From Candidatus Borrarchaeum weybense (lineage in GTDB: Archaea; Asgardarchaeota; Sifarchaeia; Borrarchaeales; Borrarchaeaceae): a stretch of 64,000 nucleotides of DNA. Of this stretch, positions 1-44,381 are shown in pieces. A program made the position numbers and the translations under genes. The stretch is taken from positions 715,685-779,684 of the forward strand of contig JAHQJS010000007.1 in NCBI GenBank assembly GCA_019057385.1. The letters are read 5' to 3'. Numbering within the stretch: position 1 is the first letter of the stretch; the number at the start of each line of letters is the position of its first letter. The notes beneath the pieces are model-generated. The model searched no databases, was not told the DNA's origin, and saw nothing but the letters and a program-made list of their open reading frames with translations.

Positions 1-213
1 ATATCTCCATTTTGAATCAACTTGCCTTCGTTCTATAGTTTGAAGTCTTTGCTATTAGTATAGCATCGAATTCATACAGATTTTTCAACGCTAAAAGAAT
101 TGTGGAGAAAAAACTCACAATCTATTTAATAGAAGATGCAGTTAGATAAAGCAGACTACTTATATTTTAATATCGCGCAAGAGAATTGATTTAGTAACTA
201 GGGGATCTTTTCC

Positions 214-636
214 ATGATACAAAGAACGCTGAAAGAAGGTTCACGTCAAATTCAATGCTATATGCCCTGTCCGTGCCTCAAACTTGAATCCGAAGAGCAG
301 TATTGCATCAATGGAACTTCGATTCAAGATGTCAACTATGTAGATTTCGGCTTCATACCTTGCTTTAAAAGTTCAGATAAAGCTTCAGACGCGTCACTTT
401 GTTTAAATATGGTTTATGCAGATAGTGATGGTTTCATCAGATGCGGAACAAGTAAAAAACTCATTAAAGTCAGAAATAGTCACATTTCTATTAAAGACTA
501 TTTAGAAGCGATTGACAATGTAAAAAATCTCTATAATGGAAATCTGGAAACGGAATGTGTGTGTCCAGAATGTCTTTATAAAACCATTATTGGCATATAT
601 TTGAAGCAATTGGGATATAAAGTACAATCTAAATAG
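214..636 (+). CDS. Hypothetical Cys-rich protein
   Basis: 140-aa ORF with SD-like GGGGA upstream; many Cys (CPC, CVCPEC); no family recognised. Confidence 0.6.
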   Translation: MIQRTLKEGSRQIQCYMPCPCLKLESEEQYCINGTSIQDVNYVDFGFIPCFKSSDKASDASLCLNMVYADSDGFIRCGTSKKLIKVRNSHISIKDYLEAIDNVKNLYNGNLETECVCPECLYKTIIGIYLKQLGYKVQSK

Positions 637-742
637 ATATCCTTACCTGTTTTTAAACTATTTACTTCTGTTATCTTATTGGAATAATGTTCCGGATTTT
701 TCATTTTTTCAAGAAATAACCGCTATTTAAGAAGGTGATAAA

Positions 743-1648
743 ATTCAAGAAATTATAATTGACACTGACCCAGGATATGACGATTTTTTAGCTTTAATGC
801 TTGCTATTAAATCAGGAATGTTTAAAATCCATGCAATCACGACTGTTGCAGGAAATACAACTATTGAAAATACGACAAGAAATGCTCGATATATTTTGAG
901 TTTACTGAAGAGAGAAGATATTCCTGTCTATTCAGGTGCCGAAAAACCACTTGTAAGAGAGTTGTTAGAATCTAAAGTACATGGAGAAAGTGGATTAGGA
1001 GATTTGCGTCCTCAGAATGAAGCGAATTTAACATACAATGCAATTGAGAAATTATTATCGCTTATTGAAAAGAGTCCTAATAAATTGAAACTTGTTACCC
1101 TAGGCCCTCTCACTAATATTGCACAAGCAATTAAGCAGGATTCGGAAATAATGTCCCATATGCAGGAAATCGTGATCATGGGTGGGGCAATACGAGTTCC
1201 AGGAAATGCAAATAGAGTTGCTGAATTTAATATCTTTGTAGATCCTGAGGCCGCAGATATTGTGTTCAGATTTCCCGTAAAAAAAACATTAATCCCTCTT
1301 GATGCATGTATGAATGTGAAAATGAGAGTATCTGATTTTGAGAGAATTAAGGATCCATTATTGAGAGAACCCATTGTTTCTATGATGACAGTATGCATTA
1401 AAATGATTTCTGAAAAAGAAGGATTCGATGCAGCACTGATGTATGATCCCTTAACTGTGTATTCACTTATGAATCCATCTGCGTGTAAAAAAATGGATTA
1501 CCATGTCGCAATTGAAACAAAAGGTGAAATAACCAGAGGAATGACGGTTGCAGAGTTAAGAAAAATAAGAGACGAGAAGCCAAACGTTACAGTTGTTGAA
1601 TGGATCTCTGAGAAATCATTTAAAGAAGATTTCATCAAGTTTTCATAG
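743..1648 (+). CDS. Inosine/uridine-preferring nucleoside hydrolase (probable ATT start)
   Basis: N-terminal IIIDTDPGYDD motif lies in frame upstream of the ATG at 797; VAGN, HGESGLG, LGPLTNIA, AEFNIFVDPEAA, YDP motifs; in-frame TAA at 728, SD GGTGA at 734-738. Confidence 0.9.
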   Translation: MQEIIIDTDPGYDDFLALMLAIKSGMFKIHAITTVAGNTTIENTTRNARYILSLLKREDIPVYSGAEKPLVRELLESKVHGESGLGDLRPQNEANLTYNAIEKLLSLIEKSPNKLKLVTLGPLTNIAQAIKQDSEIMSHMQEIVIMGGAIRVPGNANRVAEFNIFVDPEAADIVFRFPVKKTLIPLDACMNVKMRVSDFERIKDPLLREPIVSMMTVCIKMISEKEGFDAALMYDPLTVYSLMNPSACKKMDYHVAIETKGEITRGMTVAELRKIRDEKPNVTVVEWISEKSFKEDFIKFS

Positions 1649-1649
1649 G

Positions 1650-2732
1650 CTACTCCATTTCATATTGTACTGGTTTAAATTTCATGTCATCTTTTTCGAT
1701 TTGAAACGGTTTTGCGCCTATTAGAAATCCCAACACAACAATCACGGCTAAAATCACTGCTATCATTCCAAATACGGTCTGCGTAAAGATCCTCAGCAGT
1801 TCAGATTGCCAATCGATTCCGATTTGATCCAGAGCTCTTGTACTAACTCCAAAAACCGCTGCAAAAGCCGAATAGAATGCTGTCAATTGTGGAGAGATAC
1901 CAATTTTAACCTTTCCAAGATTGATTTGCTTAGCTCTCTTCTGTATTATAACTCCAGGAATCCATATCTTCTTTTTAGGAGAGTAGTATTCAAGTGAAAT
2001 TCTGCCAAGAAGTTCGATATCTCTATAAAACTCAATTTGGATATCATATTTGCCCTCTACGAGCGGCACAACCGCAAATTGATATTCATGCACGCCTTCA
2101 ACAACTCTAATCCTTTTGTTTGAGGGAGAAATGCTGAGAGCAGGGCAGGTTGGACGAATCTCAATTATATCTCCAATCTTAGCAGCAAGCTCAATTTCTT
2201 TTTCTTGTTGCTCTTCGGGGATCAAAAGCTTGATTTTTTCACTAGAAATCAAGACTGATAAGGGATAGATTTTTCCTTGCTGCATTCGAGGATAATATAC
2301 TGCCTTCGCTTTCAAAGGAATAGTCTTTTCGGGAACTAGTTCACTCTCATCATCAAAAATACGTACTTCATCGATCGATAGAAGTTCTGGACCATGTGTT
2401 GGAGCAGCAGGCGCTCCAGGAGCTTCATCCTCAGATTCTTTTATACGCTCTGATCTACGTAATTCCGCACCAGCTAGTGCACGCTTCTCTTTAACTTTTT
2501 TTGAATGGTCTTCAATAACAGGCTGATCTGATTTTATTTTTAAAGATCTCTCATAGCATTCTAATGCCTGTTCAGAATTGCCTAAAACGTTATATGCATC
2601 TCCCATTTTGTTCCATGCTTGATAAAAATTAGGATCAATCTCAAGTGCCTTCTTATACTCTTCTATTGCTTTTTGAAATTGACCTCGTAAGAAATACTTA
2701 TTTCCCATTTTGAAATAATCTTCCGCACTCAT
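1650..2732 (-). CDS. TPR-repeat protein with beta-rich middle domain and C-terminal membrane segments
   Basis: N-terminal TPRs (AIEEYKKALEIDPN, ALECYERSLKI); two hydrophobic C-terminal stretches. Confidence 0.8.
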   Translation of the reverse strand: MSAEDYFKMGNKYFLRGQFQKAIEEYKKALEIDPNFYQAWNKMGDAYNVLGNSEQALECYERSLKIKSDQPVIEDHSKKVKEKRALAGAELRRSERIKESEDEAPGAPAAPTHGPELLSIDEVRIFDDESELVPEKTIPLKAKAVYYPRMQQGKIYPLSVLISSEKIKLLIPEEQQEKEIELAAKIGDIIEIRPTCPALSISPSNKRIRVVEGVHEYQFAVVPLVEGKYDIQIEFYRDIELLGRISLEYYSPKKKIWIPGVIIQKRAKQINLGKVKIGISPQLTAFYSAFAAVFGVSTRALDQIGIDWQSELLRIFTQTVFGMIAVILAVIVVLGFLIGAKPFQIEKDDMKFKPVQYEME

Positions 2733-2886
2733 TATTTGTCAACACTCCAAATCAGTTGTCTATATTCACGGTAAATGTTGTGATAAAACTTGTGACAGTC
2801 TTAATACAAAGAACCATTCATCAGTTAAAAAACTGTCCCAATCTAGCAAGACCTTAACATCACATTACGCGCCGTGACATATTACT

Positions 2887-4650
2887 TTACTCTCGCCATT
2901 TTAGTCTCCTTTGAGTAATTTTTCGTAGTTTTTTAATGTTCGGATAGTAATTTCGGATTTTATTCGCAAGTTCTTCATTAATGACTGCAACCTCTTCAAC
3001 TGATAAGACTCTTTCTTCTTTCTTACATAGGTTTATGAAGTCAATTTCAATTTCTTTTCTTGGCACTGTGTTTTTTCGAGAACGCGACACACTTTCTCTA
3101 ATAAGACGATATTCTCCATTTAAAGTAGGTTGTAACATCTTAAGATTTTGTTTCACTATCTCAACATATTTCTCATCAATGTCTGTAGTAATAAAGTGGC
3201 GTTTAAACATCTTTGATACAATAGCGGTTGTTCCCGCACCACAAAAAGGATCAAAAACAAGATTATCCGGAATTGTTGTTAAGTTGATTATGCGTTCCAT
3301 GAGTTTTATGGGTAATTGACAGGGATGTTGATCTCTATCCTTTTTGTGCTTAATTCTGTGAATATCCCACCAAATATCGGTTAAATCAACCTTATCATCG
3401 TCTCCAGCAGTCTTTCTTTTCTTGATGCAACTTTTACGAAGGCAGTAATAGTGAGCATCTATAGGACCTAGAGAATCGGAATCAGTAGGAGAAGGAGAAT
3501 TAAAGGTAATTGAACCTCCACGCTTTGTATAATAAAGAAGCGCATAATGAGCGGGCATGATTTTTCCTGCGGGTTCTGATAAGGCATCCCACACAATCCA
3601 ATGTCGGAAGATCATATTATCCAACTCATTTAAGAATGCAGCATGATGAATACACCACTTTGGTAAATTTACTATCATCAATGCTCCACCAGGGCGTAAA
3701 ACTTCACACATTAGTTTAAGCCAGTCTTTACACCACTCCAAATATCTCTGATCGGATTGTAAATCAGCATATTCTCCATAATCCTTTTCGAGATTGTAAG
3801 GAGGGTCTGCAAATGCCAGATCAAATATCCCCTTGGGGTATTTGGTTGCAATCGTTTTCATAAACTCAATCGCATCAACAAAAAGTACTTGATCTAAAGG
3901 TAACTTTTTAAGAACACCTTTATTATTTTGAGAAACTTCCATAGCCTTTGCCGTAAAGGGTTTAAGTTGCTGTTCTGTTGGCGCTAGAGATTGCTGTTCG
4001 ATAATATTTATGAAAGATAAAGAAGGTTTTTCCACAAGGTCATATATTCGATTTAACACAAAATCTGGAATTTCGTTTGTTTCTAGAAATGTCTTTGGCA
4101 AATCTCTCCACACATCTGAAACGGCAGCACCTAACGGATTTAATAGATGCTTTTTTCCGCCCCAATCCTTTGTGATCTTTCCGCAGGCATGACATTCTTG
4201 GTAAGGTATTCGTACTGTTTTGGTGTTTAAATGGAATGGGGAAGGAGTCTTGGTTTTTCTACTCTTCAAATACAGAAGTAAGCCTGTATGAGTAGGTGGA
4301 AAGGTTTCTTGTGGAGATCTTGCATCTATATCGAGTGCGATCCAGTATTTAAAAATCATCTTGGATTTTCCGTTCTGCAGTGAATCTAGGAAAACTCCAA
4401 AAAATGGTAGCCATCTCGGTAGACCATATATGAATAATAAACCACCATTTTTAAGAATTTGAAAGCCTTTCTGGATTGTATTCATTGTTTTCTTAAGACG
4501 TTTTCTATATTCATTACCGATATCTTGGTAAGACTTCTCATTTGGGTCGAATTCTGTGCTAATAACTACGGCATCTACTGAATTGTCAGGAATGGCTTCA
4601 TATGAAGCATGTGGTAATCGGATTGTTGTAATATTTCTTGCTATATTCAT
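2887..4650 (-). CDS. Site-specific N4/N6 DNA methyltransferase, beta class, with a degenerate duplicated N-terminal MTase domain
   Basis: DPPY catalytic motif precedes HPCQLP and FDPFCGAGTT SAM motif; N-half aligns to C-half but lacks both motifs. Confidence 0.88.
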   Translation of the reverse strand: MNIARNITTIRLPHASYEAIPDNSVDAVVISTEFDPNEKSYQDIGNEYRKRLKKTMNTIQKGFQILKNGGLLFIYGLPRWLPFFGVFLDSLQNGKSKMIFKYWIALDIDARSPQETFPPTHTGLLLYLKSRKTKTPSPFHLNTKTVRIPYQECHACGKITKDWGGKKHLLNPLGAAVSDVWRDLPKTFLETNEIPDFVLNRIYDLVEKPSLSFINIIEQQSLAPTEQQLKPFTAKAMEVSQNNKGVLKKLPLDQVLFVDAIEFMKTIATKYPKGIFDLAFADPPYNLEKDYGEYADLQSDQRYLEWCKDWLKLMCEVLRPGGALMIVNLPKWCIHHAAFLNELDNMIFRHWIVWDALSEPAGKIMPAHYALLYYTKRGGSITFNSPSPTDSDSLGPIDAHYYCLRKSCIKKRKTAGDDDKVDLTDIWWDIHRIKHKKDRDQHPCQLPIKLMERIINLTTIPDNLVFDPFCGAGTTAIVSKMFKRHFITTDIDEKYVEIVKQNLKMLQPTLNGEYRLIRESVSRSRKNTVPRKEIEIDFINLCKKEERVLSVEEVAVINEELANKIRNYYPNIKKLRKITQRRLKWRE

Positions 4651-30986: not shown

Positions 30987-31418
30987 TTAATTGGACCTCA
31001 CTTTGAGCCAGATACAAGTATGACTCTATTTGGAAAGCCTATATCAATGCCAATCTTAGGCTGAAACGGCTAATAAAATCGAAAATGCAATTTCTGCTAC
31101 AATTGCTGAAGGAAAATATGTCACATACGATTAAAAGCCTCCAGAAAAAAAAAGATGAAGCAGTGGGCACAAAAGAATACAGTGAGCTACCTCGTGCTAA
31201 AGCCTCGAGGCTTCCTGCTTCAACGACGGACTCGATCCCCTTGTGGGTTACGGAGGTCTTATCTCCACAGGCTTAACATCCCTACGCCCCGTAGGTACTA
31301 TAATTGGTTTCATAAAAAACTATATAAACATCACGCAATTCATCACCACGCTAAAGCAGTGGTGCTTTCTTGCTTGGTTATCAGTAATGCAGTGATTTCA
31401 CATATTGATGAACAATAG
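30987..31418 (+). pseudogene. Chimeric gene fragments: FMN-dependent alpha-hydroxy-acid oxidase piece plus isocitrate/isopropylmalate dehydrogenase C-terminus split by a mini-IS
   Basis: LIGPHFEPDTSMTLFGKPISMPILG, then ANKIENAISATIAEGKYVTYD*..AVGTKEYS|NAVISHIDEQ*. Confidence 0.6.
31182..31383 (-). mobile_element. 202-bp non-autonomous IS200/IS605 element with omegaRNA-type right end
   Basis: Minus strand: TTAC target, AAAG + left hairpin, GAAG + right hairpin, TCAC end; excision restores the host reading frame; second copy at 37590. Confidence 0.88.
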
Positions 31419-37014: not shown

Positions 37015-37542
37015 CTAAACGAAATCGATGTACACTGTTGCAGTGAAGTCTGGGATTGTCTCAAAGTTAAAAATCACATCAAGTCGAACTGATTGACCTC
37101 TTACTTCTTCTTTATACTCTGCGATTTCTTCAGCAGCTACAGTAAAACTATCAGTTTCGTCCAGTCCAGCAAGGATATCAAACCCTTCTTTTCCATCACC
37201 ATCATCATCAGCATTATCGACATCGATGTTGTGCGTATAGATCTTAACTTCCCAGTCCCAGATTCCTAGAATCCTTTGGACAGAATAAATCTCCATGGAC
37301 ATATCCGTGAGATGGACCGTCTCACCGTTATTTTGAATAGCGAGGTCTACACTGATAGCATTGTCAACGTTTATTGTAAGTGGGTTATCCTTAGTATTGT
37401 ACTGAGATACATCATTGCCGTTTATTAAAACTGTCATCGATAGATCCTGGTGTGTGTATGCTGCATTAGATAGCGGAGCGAACGTACTAAGTGCAAATAG
37501 AGCTACAAGCAATAAACCAATTATTGATGTAGATTTCCTCAA
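37015..37542 (-). CDS. Secreted beta-rich protein (family member 1)
   Basis: Signal peptide ending SNA-A; YTHQDL..NG.DVS..GETVHL..DVDNADDDGDGKEGFDI..IPDFTATVY. Confidence 0.85.
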   Translation of the reverse strand: MRKSTSIIGLLLVALFALSTFAPLSNAAYTHQDLSMTVLINGNDVSQYNTKDNPLTINVDNAISVDLAIQNNGETVHLTDMSMEIYSVQRILGIWDWEVKIYTHNIDVDNADDDGDGKEGFDILAGLDETDSFTVAAEEIAEYKEEVRGQSVRLDVIFNFETIPDFTATVYIDFV

Positions 37543-37589
37543 AATAATTCACCTTTCCTAAAGTCTTTTCTCATTATCCAATTATCTGA

Positions 37590-37793
37590 GTGAGCTACCT
37601 CGTGCTTAAGCCTTGAGGCTTCCTGCTTCTACGACAGACTCGATCCCCTTGCGGGTTACGGAGGTCTTATCTCCACAGGCTTAACATCCCTACGCCCCGT
37701 AGGTACTCATAGACGCAAGGAGCACCAGATTATATGAACCCAACGCCATTCATCACCACGCTAAAACATTGGTGCTTTCTTGCTTGGCTTTTT
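37590..37793 (-). mobile_element. 204-bp non-autonomous IS200/IS605 element with omegaRNA-type right end
   Basis: TTAC target (GTAA 37794-37797), AAAG/GAAG guide tetramers, TCAC end; 117-nt right part differs from the 31182 copy at 5 positions. Confidence 0.88.
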
Positions 37794-37815
37794 GTAAGAT
37801 AAATAGATCTCCATC

Positions 37816-37836
37816 TTTAATAATTCTTTTAGTACA
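37816..37836 (-). promoter_or_regulatory. TGTACTAAAA-N3-TTATTAAA promoter motif
   Basis: Same motif at 38505-38525 and 42216-42236. Confidence 0.65.
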
Positions 37837-37874
37837 ATTTTTTCCCTTACTATAAGGTTTTTTAATTTGAAACA

Positions 37875-37913
37875 AAGCAAGAATGCTACCCACTTTAGTT
37901 AGAAATGAATTGC
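37875..37913 (+). mobile_element. Orphan degenerate left end of the same IS200/IS605 mini-element family
   Basis: AAGCAAGAATGC..CTTTAG..ATGAATTGC resembles AAGCAAGAAAGC..CTTTAG..ATGAATTGC. Confidence 0.55.
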
Positions 37914-38057
37914 TAAAGGCAGATACTTGTGAAAAAGATTGTTTAGACTTAATAAATAAGCCTGGAAAAAGTCTAGTTTGGTAAAATAAATAATAAGATA
38001 AAAAAATGAAAAATCTGGAGTTCTTGATATCGAAATGCTACTCAATCTAAAGAGCCA

Positions 38058-38429
38058 TTATTGAGTCTTCCAGAAATATTTGAGTGCATACAAAAGATAT
38101 ATCGTTAGAACTAGGAATGAACCAAATGTAAGCCACGTAGCAGTCAAGCCTAACGCTGAAATTATTAAACCGATTACTGCGAGTACGGTAGTGGCAAACC
38201 AAGACCATTTTTTCATGTACCATAATCCACTTCCCACAGCCATCACGATAAGCGCTAGGAAAATCCAGCCAATCCCTAAAATCAACTCATTACCTACGCC
38301 CCACAACGGTGTCGTAAGTAGTGTGACTGCTATAACCCCTAGGAAGATCAATCCTCGGACTAATACAATGATACCAACGATATAGACTAGAATTGCTAAA
38401 AGGGTGATACCAATAGGTCGTTTTTCCAT
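38058..38429 (-). CDS. Small 4-TM membrane protein
   Basis: KRPIGITLLAIL..GLW.MKKWSW; four hydrophobic helices. Confidence 0.8.
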   Translation of the reverse strand: MEKRPIGITLLAILVYIVGIIVLVRGLIFLGVIAVTLLTTPLWGVGNELILGIGWIFLALIVMAVGSGLWYMKKWSWFATTVLAVIGLIISALGLTATWLTFGSFLVLTIYLLYALKYFWKTQ

Positions 38430-38504
38430 ATTATTCTCTCCTCATTTTTTTGATTTTCATTATTTAGAATTACTTATCAGTTAAAACTGATATAATAGAG
38501 TTTA

Positions 38505-38525
38505 TTTGATAAGCCTTTTAGTACA
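38505..38525 (-). promoter_or_regulatory. TGTACTAAAA-N3-TTATCAAA promoter motif
   Basis: Shared with the two secreted-protein genes; palindrome TATCAGTT-AA-AACTGATA at 38475-38492 lies downstream. Confidence 0.6.
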
Positions 38526-38589
38526 CCGTTTGCACATGCCAAAAATCGATTGTGGGGCATTTTTTGCATGAAAAAAATCGAGTTCACGC

Positions 38590-39795
38590 CTAAACAAAAC
38601 TTTCAGGTAGAATTTTTCGTAAGACAAGATTCTTTTTGTTAATAAAAAACTTCTTTTGTCCATTTTCCAGTATAACGTTAATTATTTTTGCGTCTACAAG
38701 CTTTTTCATATTATATCTGATGGTTCCCTGAGATTTCCCTAATTGCTTTGCAATAAGATTCTGGTATGCCCCAGGGTTTTTTGAAATGAATTGAACTATC
38801 GCTTTAGCAGTATTGCTTTTTAATATTAATCGGGGATCCTTCGGTGAAATCTTTCTTCCAGTTGGATAATAAACTTTGTACTGCTTATATCTATGAGAGC
38901 CAATAAATCCAAAATCTTCTAGAACCTGTAAATGCCAAACTCCTGCAAAGGGTCCTATATCGATATAATCAATAATCTCACGAAAATGGGCACCCTCATT
39001 ATTGATAATATAGTCGTAAATTTTCTCTCTGGTAACATTCGTTAAAATTTCATCTTTTTTAAGATTTCTAACCGCCGGTGGACGAATTACTGTCCCAATA
39101 GCTACACAAAACGTAGCTAATTTTTTCACAACTTTGAAGGTAAATTCCCTATTTGTAAGGATAACCGCAAAAGAGACGGCTATCGCACTTATTGTAGAGA
39201 ATACAATCAATTCTGACGTTTGAATTCCTTTAAAAAGATCAAATAAGCCATTAGAACCTTCAGATGCTATTTGTCCTTCTCTTAGGTATACGGTAATAAA
39301 ATAATCTGGGATAATTTCAAAGTTAAGGTTGATATCAACACGCACTCGTTGACCTCTAATTTGCTCTTTATACTCTTTAATCTCTTCTGAATATACAACA
39401 AAATTACGGGATTCACTCATTCCCGACTCTATATCAAAACCTTCTTTTCCATCACCGTCTTCATCATTATTGTCGACATCTATGTAATGTGTAAAAACTT
39501 TCGCTTCTTGATCCCATAAGAGAATCTCTTGAACTGTATAGACATCGATTGACGCATCGATTAGGTGAACAGATTCGCCAGCGTTTGATATATCTAAATC
39601 TATTTCTATATCGTTTTCAATATCTATTACAAGCGGAGTTTCCTTAGTATTATGCAGAGATATGTCATTATCATTTACTAAAACTGTAAATGTGAGGTCG
39701 TGGTGTGTATATGAGGCGTTTAGAGACGAAACAAGAGCATTAATGGTGAAAAGCATCATAAAAATGAAAACTAGAACAGACACAGATTTTCTCAA
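38590..39795 (-). CDS. Membrane-anchored transcription regulator: secreted-family ectodomain + TM + double winged HTH
   Basis: Signal peptide, same ectodomain as 37015, TM segment, then TREKIYDYI..GAHFREI..WHLQVLE and NPGAYQNLIAKQLGKS..IRYNMKKL (COG3398-like). Confidence 0.85.
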   Translation of the reverse strand: MRKSVSVLVFIFMMLFTINALVSSLNASYTHHDLTFTVLVNDNDISLHNTKETPLVIDIENDIEIDLDISNAGESVHLIDASIDVYTVQEILLWDQEAKVFTHYIDVDNNDEDGDGKEGFDIESGMSESRNFVVYSEEIKEYKEQIRGQRVRVDINLNFEIIPDYFITVYLREGQIASEGSNGLFDLFKGIQTSELIVFSTISAIAVSFAVILTNREFTFKVVKKLATFCVAIGTVIRPPAVRNLKKDEILTNVTREKIYDYIINNEGAHFREIIDYIDIGPFAGVWHLQVLEDFGFIGSHRYKQYKVYYPTGRKISPKDPRLILKSNTAKAIVQFISKNPGAYQNLIAKQLGKSQGTIRYNMKKLVDAKIINVILENGQKKFFINKKNLVLRKILPESFV

Positions 39796-39982
39796 AATGC
39801 TTTCATCCCTTGTTTGGAAGCCAATAGACTTTTTATTGATTCTCTATATATACTTAAATTATTAAGTTTTAGAATGCATTAAAATCGATTTAATAAATAA
39901 AAAACATACTATAGAAATTCACAAATAAAAGATCCAGCAATTTGATTTAGGTAAAATGCTTTATCATTAAAAGAATTTGTAT

Positions 39983-41308
39983 TTACACTGAAAACGCATT
40001 TTCAGGGAGAATTCTACGTAAAGCTAGGTTCTTTTCGTTAATATAAAATCTCTTTTGCCCATTTTCCTTCATAATGTTGATTATTTTTGCGTCTACAAGC
40101 TTTTTCATATTATATCTAATCGCCCCTGAAGATTTCCCTAATTGCTTTGCAATAAGATTCTGGTATGCCCCAGGGTTTTTTAAAATAAAGCGAACGATCG
40201 CCTTAGCAGTCTTACTTTTTAATACTAAGCGGGGATCCTTCAGTGGAATTACTTTTCCTGCAATTAATGGATAGAAAATCTTATAGTGCTTATATCTGCG
40301 AGAGACAATGAATCCAAAGTCTTCTAGAACCTGCAAATGCCAGGTGCCCTCAAATGGACCAATATCAATGTGATTGATAATTTCGCGAAAATGAGCGCCT
40401 TCATGAGAACAAATGTAGTTATAAATTCGATCTCGGGTATCATTCGTTAATACCTCATCTTCTTTAAGATTTCTAATTGAAGGTGGACGAACTACAGTAC
40501 CAATAGCTACAATAAATGCTTCAGCACTTATAATAACAAAAAACATTTCACCAATCTTGAAAATTAGAGCTGCAAACTTGAGTGCAATTTTTTTATTCGT
40601 TTGCATTACAACAAATGAGACTAAAAGAGCGCTTGCTGTTGTATATAAAATCAATTGTGACGTTTCAACCCCTCTAAACGGGTCAAATAAGTCTATCGTA
40701 TATTCTGTATCTTGTGTAACTCCATTATCACTAATACCTTCCGTATTTCCGTCTGTTTCCGTTTTATTGGAGGCTTCTGGTGAAACTACACCTTCTTCTA
40801 TATAAACAGTAATAGTATAGTCAGATATAGTTTCAAAATTGAAAGTTAAATCAACCCGAGCTCTTTGATCTCTCATTAGTTCCTTGTATTCTTCAATATC
40901 TTTTGACCTTAATCTAAGACTTTTTGATTCTGCCAATCCAGCAACAATATCGAAACCTTCTCTTCCATCGCCATCTTCGTCACCATTATCAACATCGATG
41001 TTGTATTTAAAGATCTTTGTTTCATAATCCCAAAAAAGTGCTTTCTGGATTGTATAGACCTCAATTGATGTGTCTATTAAATGAATTGTCTCGCCTGTGT
41101 TCGAGATATCAAAATCTATCTCGATATCGTTATCTACATCCAATAAAAGTGGGTTATTTTTAGTGTGACTTGATACTTCACTACCGTTTATCAAGACAGT
41201 TATAGTAAGGTCTTGATGTGTATAAGCAGCATTTCCAGGGGAGATAAAAGCTGATAATGTGACTAGTGTTACAAATACCAGGATAAAGATGGGCAGATTT
41301 TTTTTCAA
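39983..41308 (-). CDS. Membrane-anchored transcription regulator: secreted-family ectodomain + TM + double winged HTH
   Basis: Paralogue of 38590-39795 with a longer S/T/E-rich stalk and an extra hydrophobic segment. Confidence 0.85.
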   Translation of the reverse strand: MKKNLPIFILVFVTLVTLSAFISPGNAAYTHQDLTITVLINGSEVSSHTKNNPLLLDVDNDIEIDFDISNTGETIHLIDTSIEVYTIQKALFWDYETKIFKYNIDVDNGDEDGDGREGFDIVAGLAESKSLRLRSKDIEEYKELMRDQRARVDLTFNFETISDYTITVYIEEGVVSPEASNKTETDGNTEGISDNGVTQDTEYTIDLFDPFRGVETSQLILYTTASALLVSFVVMQTNKKIALKFAALIFKIGEMFFVIISAEAFIVAIGTVVRPPSIRNLKEDEVLTNDTRDRIYNYICSHEGAHFREIINHIDIGPFEGTWHLQVLEDFGFIVSRRYKHYKIFYPLIAGKVIPLKDPRLVLKSKTAKAIVRFILKNPGAYQNLIAKQLGKSSGAIRYNMKKLVDAKIINIMKENGQKRFYINEKNLALRRILPENAFSV

Positions 41309-41647
41309 AATATATTCACCATTTTAATGAGGTATTATAACTTTAGTGACAAATAACTTTATTATTACCTCACAAAATACCTCACTACGCAATTGTTTTG
41401 TTTTCTAATCTATTCCTATGTATATTTTTGGACTTAATATTTGAAATTCTTTGCTCCATTCACAACTTGGTACACTGGGTTTTCCATTTTAATTGATTTT
41501 ATTTTGCTAAAAATCACTTTTGGTACAAATTTTGTTACTTTCCAGTTTAATCTAGAACCGCATATTATACAAGAGGGTATTGAAAAATAGTATTACATTA
41601 GAAGCACATTGAAAAATCAAATCAAAAATAAAAAGAAAAGATTAGGA

Positions 41648-42139
41648 TTAAACAAACTCCACATAAACTGTTATGACAAAGTATGGAATGCTTTCAAAAC
41701 TAAGGGTCACATCAATGCGATTGGTTTGTCCTCTAAGTGCTTCTTTATTCTCTCCGACATTGTTTAGGAACAAAGTAAAACTGGCTTTCGTTCCAAATCC
41801 TGCAGGGATGTCTTTGTCGACTTCGAATTGATTTTCGTAGAATTTTGTGTCCCAGTGCCAGAAAAGAACAGGCTGAACATTATAAAGTTCAACAGTAATG
41901 TCGTTTAGGTGGACAGTTTCCCCATTATTTGCAAATGAGAAATCTCCTTTAACATCTTCGTCTAGGTTTATTACTAGTGGATTATTAAAAGTATCATGTG
42001 TTGATACATCTGAACCGTTAAGAAATAGTGTCATTGTTATATCATGATGAGTATAGTCAGCGCTTGAAAGAGGGGCAAAGGTAGTCATTGCAAATAATGT
42101 CACAAATAGTATCGCTATGACGCTGGTATATTTTCTCAA
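41648..42139 (-). CDS. Secreted beta-rich protein (family member 4, lacks the acidic loop)
   Basis: TTG 42139 follows SD AAGGTGA; signal peptide; YTHHDI..NGSDVS..GETVHL..IPYFVITVYVEFV. Confidence 0.85.
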   Translation of the reverse strand: MRKYTSVIAILFVTLFAMTTFAPLSSADYTHHDITMTLFLNGSDVSTHDTFNNPLVINLDEDVKGDFSFANNGETVHLNDITVELYNVQPVLFWHWDTKFYENQFEVDKDIPAGFGTKASFTLFLNNVGENKEALRGQTNRIDVTLSFESIPYFVITVYVEFV

Positions 42140-42215: not shown

Positions 42216-42236
42216 TTTAATAACTTTTTTAGTACA
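42216..42236 (-). promoter_or_regulatory. TGTACTAAAA-N3-TTATTAAA promoter motif
   Basis: Third copy of the motif. Confidence 0.65.
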
Positions 42237-42414: not shown

Positions 42415-42861
42415 CTATTCTTGGTCTTCTAATTCACCATCATCTTTGCTTAAAGCGAATTCCTTAATCTCTTGCAGGTTCCTTTCCATCCATTCTTTTC
42501 CAATATTCGTCTCAAGTAATTCAACTACCTCATCTTTGCCTTTTAGTTTTAAATACCATCTTATGACCGTTACGTTCATTGCTCTTATGGCTAAACGACT
42601 CATACGGCTCAAATCAACTAACAAGGGCTCTAAGATCGGAGATATCGACCTATCATTCTCAATATAAAGTTCACAAATGTCCCTGGTCAGATTATCAAAT
42701 ATTAAGCCATAATGATGCTTTTTTTCAGCCACGGCATCAAGAACCTCCCAGATATTCTTGAGTATTTGTTCTTGCTCTTCACCATTATTCGAATACGCTA
42801 AGTCAATCATTTCTTTTCTTAGGGCATCTATCTCCTCTTGAGTCATTTCTATTTCGGTCAT
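42415..42861 (-). CDS. Hypothetical helical protein
   Basis: 148-aa ORF with SD AGGAG. Confidence 0.65.
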   Translation of the reverse strand: MTEIEMTQEEIDALRKEMIDLAYSNNGEEQEQILKNIWEVLDAVAEKKHHYGLIFDNLTRDICELYIENDRSISPILEPLLVDLSRMSRLAIRAMNVTVIRWYLKLKGKDEVVELLETNIGKEWMERNLQEIKEFALSKDDGELEDQE

Positions 42862-43056: not shown

Positions 43057-43509
43057 TTACTTCAAAATTTTGATTTGTTTGCTTCTTACGGCTGCCTCAA
43101 TCCGGCTACAAATGTTCCAAGCTTCAAAAGCATAATCAATTAAAACCACCGCGTCCCGTTTTTGAAAGATGTTACTGGTAGCGATATCGATATAACCAAA
43201 TACAGAAAAATCGTGAAACGTCTTGCTTAGTTTTGATAAGAATATGAGTCTCTGTGCACCTTCAGTGATCAGACTAAATCTTTCGGGAAGTTCAAGCTTT
43301 TTTAGTATCATATTTATTTTTGTTGTAGAATCATGCAGAGGGGGATAAGAAAGATCAACTAAACTAAAAAGCGATTTGATAGCAACTTCTATGCATGATT
43401 GAGCCGCTTGAACACTAACAGAGAAATCTTTTTTCGCTAGTAATTCTCTGCCCATCATATAATATTTATATGCTTCGGCAAGAAGTTTCGCAGCCTCTTC
43501 GATACCCAT
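43057..43509 (-). CDS. HEPN-domain protein
   Basis: DFSVSVQAAQSCIEVAIKSL..YPPLHD matches the MNT-HEPN class; no RxxxxH seen. Confidence 0.75.
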   Translation of the reverse strand: MGIEEAAKLLAEAYKYYMMGRELLAKKDFSVSVQAAQSCIEVAIKSLFSLVDLSYPPLHDSTTKINMILKKLELPERFSLITEGAQRLIFLSKLSKTFHDFSVFGYIDIATSNIFQKRDAVVLIDYAFEAWNICSRIEAAVRSKQIKILK

Positions 43510-43700: not shown

Positions 43701-44381
43701 ATGAGGAAAATTTGTTGTTGGATCATACTCGCACTTTTCGTAGGCAGTGTATTCTTTGTAAGTGTAACTACTGCTCAGGAAGACATTGAACTAGAACCAA
43801 TCGCAGACACTTATATTAGAGCTACAGATCCTGATGAAAACTATGGTGACGAAACATATCTTCGTGTGGGAGACGCACGTCTAAGCAATGATTATATACG
43901 TATTACCTATCTGCTGTTTGATTTATCAGCGATTGACGGATCGATTCAAGAGGCAACGTTGAAACTTTATCTGAAATGGTCATGGGAGGCGCGATATATT
44001 GGGATTCACGAATGTGATGACACCAATTGGAATGAAGACACACTTACCTGGAACAATGCACCTTCTTATAACTCAGAGGCTGTAGACAGTTTCAATGTTA
44101 GTCGTACACTTCAATGGAATGAATGGGATGCTACAGACATTGCTAAAGGAAAGCAAGGTCAACTGGTAACAATTGTGGTAAAAGCAAGAGATCCAGTGAA
44201 TAAAATTGGTGATTGGACCGACTTCGCTTCAAAAGAAAATGATCGCAATCATCCCGTGCTAGTCATTAATCAAGGCAGTGGCGGTTTTTCGGTGTGTCTT
44301 GGCACCATTCTGCTATGCTGTACTATTCCAGTGCTTGGATTAGGTGTCCTTTCTAAACGAATTCGTACTAAAGTTCGCTAA
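43701..44381 (+). CDS. DNRLRE/CBM96-like surface protein with C-terminal membrane anchor
   Basis: Signal peptide; PIADTYI..PDENYG..YLLFDLS..WNEDTLTWNNAP..FASKE..HPVL; CLGT-TM-basic tail. Confidence 0.82.
   Translation: MRKICCWIILALFVGSVFFVSVTTAQEDIELEPIADTYIRATDPDENYGDETYLRVGDARLSNDYIRITYLLFDLSAIDGSIQEATLKLYLKWSWEARYIGIHECDDTNWNEDTLTWNNAPSYNSEAVDSFNVSRTLQWNEWDATDIAKGKQGQLVTIVVKARDPVNKIGDWTDFASKENDRNHPVLVINQGSGGFSVCLGTILLCCTIPVLGLGVLSKRIRTKVR

Follow-up and report, generated by a model that had tools for sequence, protein, structure and literature searches.

The stretch of DNA analysed here, called the window throughout, comprises 64,000 nucleotides (nt) of the Asgard archaeon Candidatus Borrarchaeum weybense (contig JAHQJS010000007.1, positions 715,685 to 779,684 of the forward strand). 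It carries a cluster of genes for small secreted proteins and putative membrane-tethered transcription regulators that share one extracellular domain (ectodomain). Genes A to D lie in the window and gene E on another contig of the same genome, G000. A preliminary description, made from the sequence, reported four co-oriented paralogues that start with TTG and combine a signal peptide with a common domain of ~145 amino acids (aa), and the coordinates and the alignment confirmed all of these points. Its account of the gene ends was also borne out: A and D end directly behind the shared domain, and B and C run on through a stalk and a transmembrane (TM) helix into a tandem winged helix-turn-helix (wHTH). 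An acidic DxDxDG-type loop was found, as described, in A, B and C and is cleanly missing in D. The genes and their parts are as follows.

37015-37542, minus strand: gene A, free secreted paralogue of 175 aa; signal peptide and Ig-like domain with the DxDxDG loop, C-terminus ...VYIDFV.
38058-38429, minus strand: gene for a 123-aa membrane protein with four TM segments, between B and A, with the promoter box that A also carries.
38590-39795, minus strand: gene B, tethered regulator of 401 aa, with no promoter box of its own.
Gene B, parts: signal peptide, residues 1-27; ectodomain, residues 28-176 (39268-39714); TM helix, residues ~195-215 (39151-39213); basic juxtamembrane segment of 23 aa; tandem wHTH, residues ~255-401 (38593-39033).
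39983-41308, minus strand: gene C, tethered regulator of 441 aa.
Gene C, parts: signal peptide; ectodomain, residues 28-175 (40784-41227); acidic/Thr-rich stalk; TM helix, residues ~217-237 (40598-40660); hydrophobic-amphipathic juxtamembrane segment of 36 aa; tandem wHTH, residues ~289-441 (39986-40444).
41648-42139, minus strand: gene D, free secreted paralogue of 163 aa counted from TTG; acidic loop missing.
G000, contig C5, 190474-190914: gene E, a fifth, free paralogue with the loop, outside the cluster.

The TTG starts are plausible, because a ribosome-binding-like GGTGA lies 6-8 nt before each TTG (GGGATGA for B) and the homologues on record begin at the identical L-[KR]-K position. A longer, ATG-initiated reading of D (from 42247) was rejected as unlikely, since the conserved promoter box and TATA element fall within it. 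The start sites are at 37542, 39795, 41308 and 42139 in the window, at ~1435 in L002 and at ~1157 and ~3590 in L009, a near-identical 'Ca. Borrarchaeum sp.' contig (GCA_019058535.1). Genes A-D have TTG as the start codon at the conserved L-[KR]-K position; CTG apparently serves in E and in the gene for a 216-aa secreted protein of L009; the D orthologue of L009 has TTA there, so its start must be elsewhere (a GTG lies five codons downstream).

Each of A-D begins with L[RK]K and a run of 17-20 hydrophobic residues; the cleavage site that follows is AxA-like and was read by inspection as SNA/A, LNA/S, GNA/A or SSA/D (cleavage at the slash). A, D and E have no C-terminal hydrophobic segment and thus, again by inspection only, have the features of Sec-dependent substrates of signal peptidase I. 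The 123-aa protein gave no match in a Pfam scan and is DUF2127/DUF7144-like by language-model features only. Among RNA data sets none was listed with the whole cluster; a single metatranscriptome contig (234 nt, 85% identical) covers the 5' part of gene A; its source is a relative and DNA carry-over is possible, and it was not used as evidence of expression.

B and C as predicted membrane-tethered wHTH proteins

Both regulators carry HTH_HVO_0163_N (PF24266; 50.2 bits in B and 58.1 bits in C, cut-off 31) and HTH_24 (PF13412; 35.4 bits in B and C, cut-off 21.9), and they show the arrangement that defines the PF24266/COG3398 family, an HVO_0163-type HTH followed by a second wHTH. Comparison of the wHTH with the sequences of solved structures returned one weak match only (5duk). 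Literature searches found no published function for HVO_0163, COG3398 or PF24266 members and no functional description of Asgard membrane-anchored wHTH regulators. Demey et al. (2023; PMC10269533) defined transmembrane transcription regulators (TTRs), which number about four per archaeal genome; of the features used there, B and C have a recognised DNA-binding domain and at least one TM region.

TM segments were assigned from Kyte-Doolittle hydropathy and hydrophobic moment, with no dedicated TM predictor. The first segment (TM1) peaks over 19 residues at 2.39 in B (residues 196-214) and at 1.69 in C (residues 219-237), with a hydrophobic moment of 0.06-0.10. The juxtamembrane segment of the TM-juxtamembrane-wHTH module contains an invariant AIGxVxRPPxxRN motif. 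The distance from TM1 to the RPP of this motif is 23 aa in B and 36-42 aa in C and in the regulators of the coiled-coil type, with 4-5 Lys/Arg. The segment opens with an amphipathic 18-mer (moment 0.42-0.56), is basic on both flanks and in B has just 11-12 hydrophobic residues. A full-length AlphaFold2 (AF2) model of B, built from a 17-row alignment, had a mean predicted local distance difference test score (pLDDT) of 44.5 and was unusable for topology or domain packing.

B and C might not be transcription factors acting at the membrane at all, the wHTH lying outside the cell or being used for protein binding or nucleoid anchoring. The strong second hydrophobic segment in C, the uninformative full-length model and the lack of any published function among PF24266 members would agree with this. 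However, the number of membrane passes would then differ between orthologous modules with the same wHTH, given the few hydrophobic residues of B and the up to 42 aa of its relatives; the segment is basic on both of its flanks; and the wHTH scores above the Pfam cut-offs for DNA-binding wHTH families and is under strong purifying selection, with a ratio of nonsynonymous to synonymous substitution rates (dN/dS) of 0.106. We therefore consider this explanation very unlikely. Because the length and hydrophobicity of the segment vary among proteins with the same downstream wHTH, an obligatory second pass is unlikely. The variable segment and its basic flanks favour, under the positive-inside rule, a cytoplasmic wHTH.

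Sequence and predicted fold of the shared ectodomain

The ~145-aa domain aligns end to end in A-D, with 48-59% identity to A and 40 invariant columns. It matched no Pfam family at E ≤ 0.1, and a search against the sequences of solved structures found nothing (best E-value 0.77). The loop consensus D[DE]DGDG[KR]EGFD matches D-x-D-x-D-G; A and E share the core DDDGDG, B and C the core DEDGDG. Besides D, the homologues P0031 and P0034 are without this motif. DxDxDG loops are typical of Ca2+ sites, and from this motif the free Ig-like proteins probably bind Ca2+.

The AF2 model of mature A (residues 28-175) had a pLDDT of 86.3 and a predicted template modelling score (pTM) of 0.80 and contains a beta-sandwich and one helix, the acidic loop being its least confident part (pLDDT 62). 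Its structural neighbours were Spo0M (Z 11.2), RbmA (10.5), a TRAP subunit (10.3) and RhoGDI (10.1), with arrestin/Vps26, transglutaminase C-terminal domains and TRAP luminal domains as further fold neighbours. The superpositions gave Z 9-11.2, root-mean-square deviations of 2.3-2.8 Å over 108-117 residues and TM-scores of 0.57-0.73 by query. As modelled, the domain is a generic Ig-like/E-set two-sheet sandwich, an assignment at the level of fold from which neither family membership nor function follows. It shares its fold, and no sequence relationship, with Spo0M, RbmA and the other Ig-like/E-set proteins, and the DxDxDG insertion and the single helix are specific to its own family. An N-terminal metal site (amino-terminal Cu(II)- and Ni(II)-binding motif or histidine brace) at the conserved A-Y-T-H behind the cleavage site was considered and rejected: His is at position 4 in most proteins, and the motif is missing in distant members.

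Distribution, history and selection

Among 1.84 billion cluster representatives, a profile of the four ectodomains recovered 11 proteins (E ≤ 0.001), and only one of these is fused. Within the phylum the domain occurred in 5 of 400 genomes, four from the same genus and one, with the free form only, from another family of the class; fused forms were confined to the genus. A tree built by maximum likelihood from 39 ectodomains grouped every fused one in a single clade (100/99 support) that holds the B-type and several C-type sublineages. The free forms fell into A, D and E clades plus divergent members; the loop-less D is on a long branch, and its clade has orthologues in G308 (the second species of the genus), L009 and P0029. 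Since the fused ectodomains are one clade and the members from beyond the genus are all free, the tree is most simply read as a single capture of the ectodomain, from a family of small secreted proteins, by a tethered regulator that then duplicated.

The TM-juxtamembrane-wHTH module also occurs in P0047-P0051, where the wHTH half is 54-59% identical and the ectodomain is an unrelated acidic coiled coil, which argues that the ectodomain is a swappable sensor. In P0046 (278 aa, on a 1161-nt JGI contig) a PF00579 aminoacyl-tRNA-synthetase-like N-terminus is joined to the ...AEAFFVAIGTVVRPP juxtamembrane motif and a C-type wHTH half; this protein is either an assembly chimera or a rearranged copy.

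Comparison of G000 with G308 gave the following values, dS being the synonymous divergence.

A: dN/dS 0.135, dS 0.227.
C, whole gene: dN/dS 0.155, dS 0.572.
C, ectodomain: dN/dS 0.084, dS 1.6.
C, wHTH: dN/dS 0.106, dS 0.37.
D: dN/dS 0.53, dS 0.06, resting on very few changes.

A, the C ectodomain and the C wHTH are under purifying selection. The C ectodomain is also the most diverged coding stretch of the locus, with 69-83% nucleotide identity as against 93-99% for D and mostly 91-97% for the wHTH half. Divergence is mosaic where window positions 40784-41227 are set against L021 (G308), dS being ~1.6 in the sensor and 0.06 in its neighbour D, and this pattern suggests either replacement or long-standing divergence of the sensor part alone.

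A private promoter box

The cluster contains a recurring promoter element, TGTACYAAAA, at the following positions.

37827-37836, minus strand: A promoter, TGTACTAAAA box, then TATA-like TTATTAAA.
38516-38525, minus strand: promoter of the 123-aa gene, TGTACTAAAA box, then TATA-like TTATCAAA.
41309-41527, minus strand: C leader of ~210 nt, opening with the box TGTACCAAAA (41518-41527) and a TATA-like element.
42227-42236, minus strand: D promoter, TGTACTAAAA box, then TATA-like TTATTAAA, within the spurious ATG-extended open reading frame.

Each of the four TGTACYAAAA sites in the window falls within the cluster, where it is on the coding strand and lies upstream of one of four genes: A, the 123-aa gene, C or D. 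The expected number of sites is 0.45, and in 100 shuffles a count of four was never reached. The whole genome has 31 bare boxes; followed by a TATA-like T[AT]TNAA, the box is found just three times in 4.18 Mb, each time in the cluster. In G308 a longer equivalent pattern (TGTACTAAAARRNWTATYAAA) matches twice, both times in its own cluster, and this longer pattern had no match in three genus members (69-77% complete) in which a tethered regulator was not found. Across species the box keeps its distance from the gene start, ~80-90 nt for A, D and the 123-aa gene and ~210 nt for C, and ~260 nt aligned upstream of C have a mean column identity of 94% (G000, L009, G308). Similar elements are present in L009, where the gene of the coiled-coil regulator P0049 has a one-mismatch box ~215 nt before its start and the gene for the 216-aa secreted protein has tandem TGTACCAAA boxes.

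The private box that these promoters have in common makes it likely that the cluster works as a unit. Archaeal activators commonly bind just 5' of the B recognition element (BRE) and TATA box. The TGTACYAAAA box appears to sit just 5' of the presumed BRE/TATA, where its putative binding protein would contact it.

The C leader is more conserved between species (L021 8240-8460) than the adjoining ectodomain-coding sequence (69-84% nucleotide identity), and it contains an inverted repeat, TGAGGTA...TACCTCA, beside the GGTGA ribosome-binding site, which may be a translational or transcriptional control element. A 17-codon open reading frame behind the C box was rejected as a peptide gene, as G308 has ATA for ATG and then a 2-nt deletion.

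Conserved co-localisation of free and fused forms

Free and fused forms co-localise, as the preliminary description had expected if they work together, in all five contexts recovered (G000, the 'Ca. Borrarchaeum sp.' contig, G308 and two metagenome contigs), which are few and closely related. Their gene orders are as follows.

G000 and L009: D-C-B-123aa-A-77aa.
JGI contig 3300042731: same order, with a gene for a 1585-aa Ig-repeat protein inserted between D and C.
L030, starting at the contig end: (C)-B-121aa-A.
G308: D-C-A.

The 123-aa gene was thus found in G000, L009, L030 and a JGI contig and not in G308. The 1585-aa protein of the JGI contig, which has faint Big_3_3/Big_7 matches, is encoded between the D-like gene and the C-like gene but in the opposite orientation.

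Two of the findings that the preliminary description had named as counting against its reading concern the fold, the gene context and the short forms. One was that the ectodomain is a generic Ig-like module without conserved co-localisation: the structure search does indicate a generic fold, whereas free and fused forms adjoin in every recovered context. The other was that the short forms are recent truncations. This is contradicted by the ...VY[IV]xFV end, which is kept in distant members, by the presence of free forms in another family and in metagenomes, and by the low dN/dS of A.

Recurrence of the design in other Asgard archaea

PF24266 was found in 129 of the 151 Asgard genomes searched. 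At the matches listed, most open frames have ~240-280 aa and lack a large ectodomain, and many long forms occur in two families; the 241-aa PF24266 member that G000 itself encodes (contig C6) has no ectodomain. For a survey, 18 loci (L038-L055) were chosen by open-frame length alone, neighbours being disregarded, and these gave 20 regulators from 13 other genomes. All 20 have a hydrophobic N-terminus or signal peptide, an ectodomain, a TM segment and a tandem wHTH. An adjacent, co-oriented, HTH-less paralogue of the regulator's own ectodomain accompanies 14 of the 20, in five of six sequence-unrelated ectodomain clusters; kin in the survey are not independent, and the count describes recurrence with no statistical test. 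For one other ectodomain family the pairing is conserved across at least seven genera. In the HTH-less paralogues of the survey, unlike A, D and E, the C-terminus retains a TM anchor and a short basic tail. Cultured Lokiarchaeia are among the carriers of this anchored version. Profile comparison of the Borrarchaeum ectodomain with the widespread ~415-aa Asgard cassette ectodomain detected no relationship (hhalign probability 0.1%).

The commonest cassette has a box of its own, [AT]TGGGGAAAnnTATnCCTCAATCC, directly before the TATA-like element of the gene for a ~225-aa anchored paralogue, ~60-75 nt before the start. This box, an imperfect inverted repeat GGGAA-N7-TTCC that parallels TGTACYAAAA, was seen without a statistical test at L038, L039, L040, L041, L042, L044, L046, L047 and L054, the last with two copies.

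The layout had been presented as one without a described counterpart. At the level of design it is not unique: other Asgard genera, too, pair a tethered PF24266 regulator with an HTH-less paralogue of the regulator's own sensor, the ectodomains there being unrelated ones. We found no publication describing such a pairing, and this recurrent Asgard design is apparently undescribed so far.

These results bear on a reading in which the paralogy arose by duplication and shuffling and involves no functional coupling, so that B and C would regulate or sense other things and the box would have been inherited with the duplicated DNA. A, D and E are paralogous, so the similarity of their promoters could be by descent, with the E promoter as a degenerate version. 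B has no box, the family is young and restricted to one genus, and the region is variable, with an integrase, HEPN genes and mobile elements. However, the non-paralogous 123-aa gene and the regulator gene C have the exact box at conserved positions in several species, and the box and TATA pattern occurs nowhere else in the genome. The synteny of free and fused forms is kept in five of five contexts, and for another ectodomain family the pairing spans genera. A purely historical origin of the arrangement therefore seems improbable.

Flanking genes and a mobile element

Three genes lie upstream of the cluster, and a repeat interrupts the A leader.

42415-42861: gene for an acidic protein of 148 aa.
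43057-43509: gene for a HEPN-domain protein (PF05168, E-value 2.3e-5).
43701-44381: gene for a protein with a signal peptide, a C-terminal anchor and a CBM96 module (E-value 1e-34).
37590-37793, minus strand: GC-rich dispersed repeat of 204 nt in the A leader, between promoter box and start codon.

The three upstream genes also flank the G308 cluster, with one extra gene between the CBM96 and HEPN genes, and are not in L009; the upstream boundary of the cluster is therefore variable. In L009 the stretch before the cluster (1-3444) holds three genes, for a phage-type integrase, for the 216-aa secreted acidic-repeat protein and for the tethered regulator P0049, which has an acidic coiled-coil ectodomain and lies directly upstream of D. 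As a sixth family member the 216-aa protein is a lead only (hhalign probability 71% over 48 columns).

The 204-nt repeat has a GC content of 52-56%, compared with ~26-31% in its flanks. It is inserted exactly 3' of TTAC and ends in TCAC. G000 contains 61 matches, or roughly 40 copies, with a second window copy at 31181-31377, and many of the matches are a longer second form with ends ~150 nt further apart. The repeat is not in the A leaders of G308 and L030, and the A leader minus the repeat aligns with the uninterrupted D leader. These sequence features fit a mini-element of the IS200/IS605 type. The GC-rich stretch had also been considered as a riboswitch or structured RNA gene, a reading rejected because there was no Rfam match at E ≤ 1 and no tRNA, the folding z-scores were -1.1 and -1.4, and the stretch proved to be a dispersed repeat.

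Possible association of the regulators with the secreted paralogues

We propose that B and C are type-I single-pass, membrane-tethered one-component regulators with the ectodomain outside and the wHTH inside, the basic, amphipathic juxtamembrane segment hugging the membrane. Their tethered wHTH modules would act at the TGTACYAAAA promoters, a DNA target suggested by the private box, and the cluster would form a private regulon that takes in A, D and the 123-aa membrane protein and also C, one of the regulators. Outside the cell, the receptor ectodomain would form a heteromer with the HTH-less paralogues in the fashion of ToxR-ToxS, TcpP-TcpH or VtrA-VtrC, possibly in a Ca2+-dependent manner through the DxDxDG loop. 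Such pairing would affect how the regulator oligomerises or clusters, or how stable it is, and would thereby let the genes of the secreted proteins respond to how much of these proteins is present or in which state. Each of ToxR, TcpP and VtrA acts together with a partner, encoded alongside, that binds to its periplasmic domain, and heteromers between paralogues commonly descend from homomers. Since the paralogues consist of the sensor domain alone, they may fit the role of partner or modulator better than that of effector. Direct association of the B and C ectodomains with the HTH-less paralogues, feeding back on the genes with the box, is the reading that we tentatively favour, at somewhat less than even confidence.

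Several findings weigh against it. In C and most of its relatives a second stretch is also strongly hydrophobic (Kyte-Doolittle 2.3-2.4 over 19 aa), and in C the last 19 residues of the juxtamembrane segment are hydrophobic enough for a membrane span, which would put the wHTH outside. The Ig-like sandwich is generic and offers no diagnostic interface. The regulon lacks uniformity, as B is without a box; the version before E is degenerate; and the box could be a promoter module that was copied along with the gene duplications and is bound by another factor. Kin are few, the fused form is restricted to one genus and L009 is nearly identical to G000. Finally, both G000 and L009 have the mobile element between the A promoter and the start codon, and in G000 it may have partly disabled the circuit.

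Alternatively, free and tethered ectodomains could bind a shared external ligand, such as a glycan, a matrix polymer or Ca2+ or another metal, with no contact between the paralogues; the free forms would then be scavengers, matrix components or decoys, and the tethered ones would use a borrowed module. The fold class contains many carbohydrate-binding and matrix modules (RbmA, the Wzt carbohydrate-binding domain, carbohydrate-binding modules and Fn3-like glycosidase domains, Z 7.5-10.5), the DxDxDG loop is typical of Ca2+ sites, the CBM96 surface protein (43701-44381) is encoded nearby, and clostridial RsgI proteins offer a precedent (PMC10328401, PMC6852018). The much faster divergence of the C ectodomain than of the wHTH (dS 1.6 vs 0.37) is likewise what a specificity-determining sensor would be expected to show. 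However, in contrast to cellulosomal proteins, the free paralogues have no domain with an enzymatic or other effector function, neither a ligand-binding pocket nor a family could be assigned, and pairing with five unrelated ectodomain clusters is simpler as a partner relationship than as five separate ligands. A shared ligand is thus a serious candidate that we nevertheless hold to be rather unlikely.

The free Ig-like proteins could also be diffusible ligands of their paralogous receptors, serving self or density sensing or, because the receptor ectodomain 'cassette' has diverged strongly between species, kin recognition. We think this unlikely, and the reading of the paralogues as partners or co-receptors is better grounded than density sensing. 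Homotypic binding, proteolytic release of the receptors and an antagonist role for the loop-less D, which the preliminary description had suggested, would be further and speculative possibilities. If a ligand role were true, 'receptor ectodomain = copy of partner' would be a general Asgard principle, conceptually near the eukaryotic homophilic receptors of the Ig and cadherin type.

Membrane-bound one-component regulators are common in archaea, but the signal of hardly any is known. In this cluster candidate partners of the sensor domain are in view, namely the adjoining paralogues marked by the same private promoter element. If the paralogues bind the receptors, the system would be a simple, repeatedly evolved way of reporting from the cell surface or surroundings to the genome in the closest prokaryotic relatives of eukaryotes.

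Comparison with known systems

Like TTRs (ToxR-ToxS, TcpP-TcpH, VtrA-VtrC and CadC, and archaeal ArnR/ArnR1), B and C combine sensor, anchor and DNA-binding domain in one polypeptide, have an adjacent gene for a co-encoded extracytoplasmic partner candidate and may plausibly be autoregulated. In the ToxR/TcpP/CadC type an N-terminal cytoplasmic OmpR/PhoB-type wHTH is followed by the TM segment and a C-terminal periplasmic domain. In B and C this order is reversed and the DNA-binding module is PF24266 plus HTH_24, not OmpR/PhoB-type as in ToxR, so they are not members. The putative partners also differ: they are free secreted paralogues of the sensor domain, whereas ToxS, TcpH and VtrC are not paralogues of their regulators. 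Within the PF24266/COG3398 family, B and C share the second wHTH and add a signal peptide, an Ig-like ectodomain and a TM helix.

In the RsgI-SigI biomass sensors of Clostridium thermocellum, the sensor modules copy cellulosomal carbohydrate-binding modules (PMC10328401, PMC6852018). The Borrarchaeum ectodomain likewise copies a module of the secreted proteins that would be controlled. RsgI proteins, however, are anti-sigma factors whose signalling runs through autoproteolysis and RseP cleavage. In B and C the DNA-binding domain is part of the regulator itself, and the secreted proteins here have no catalytic domains. A Pfam scan of B and C at E ≤ 0.1 found no RsgI-type anti-sigma-I or autoproteolytic periplasmic domain. 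To our knowledge, archaea have no sigma factors.

The anchored cassettes of other Asgard archaea (L038-L055) have the same regulator order, an adjacent co-oriented paralogue and a cassette-specific box before the TATA element of the paralogue. The Borrarchaeum cluster differs from them in having several free paralogues, one of them loop-less, and two regulators, and in being confined to one genus. We therefore regard the cluster as a new variant of transmembrane one-component regulators, in which the free secreted paralogues and the clearly delimited private regulon are unusual.

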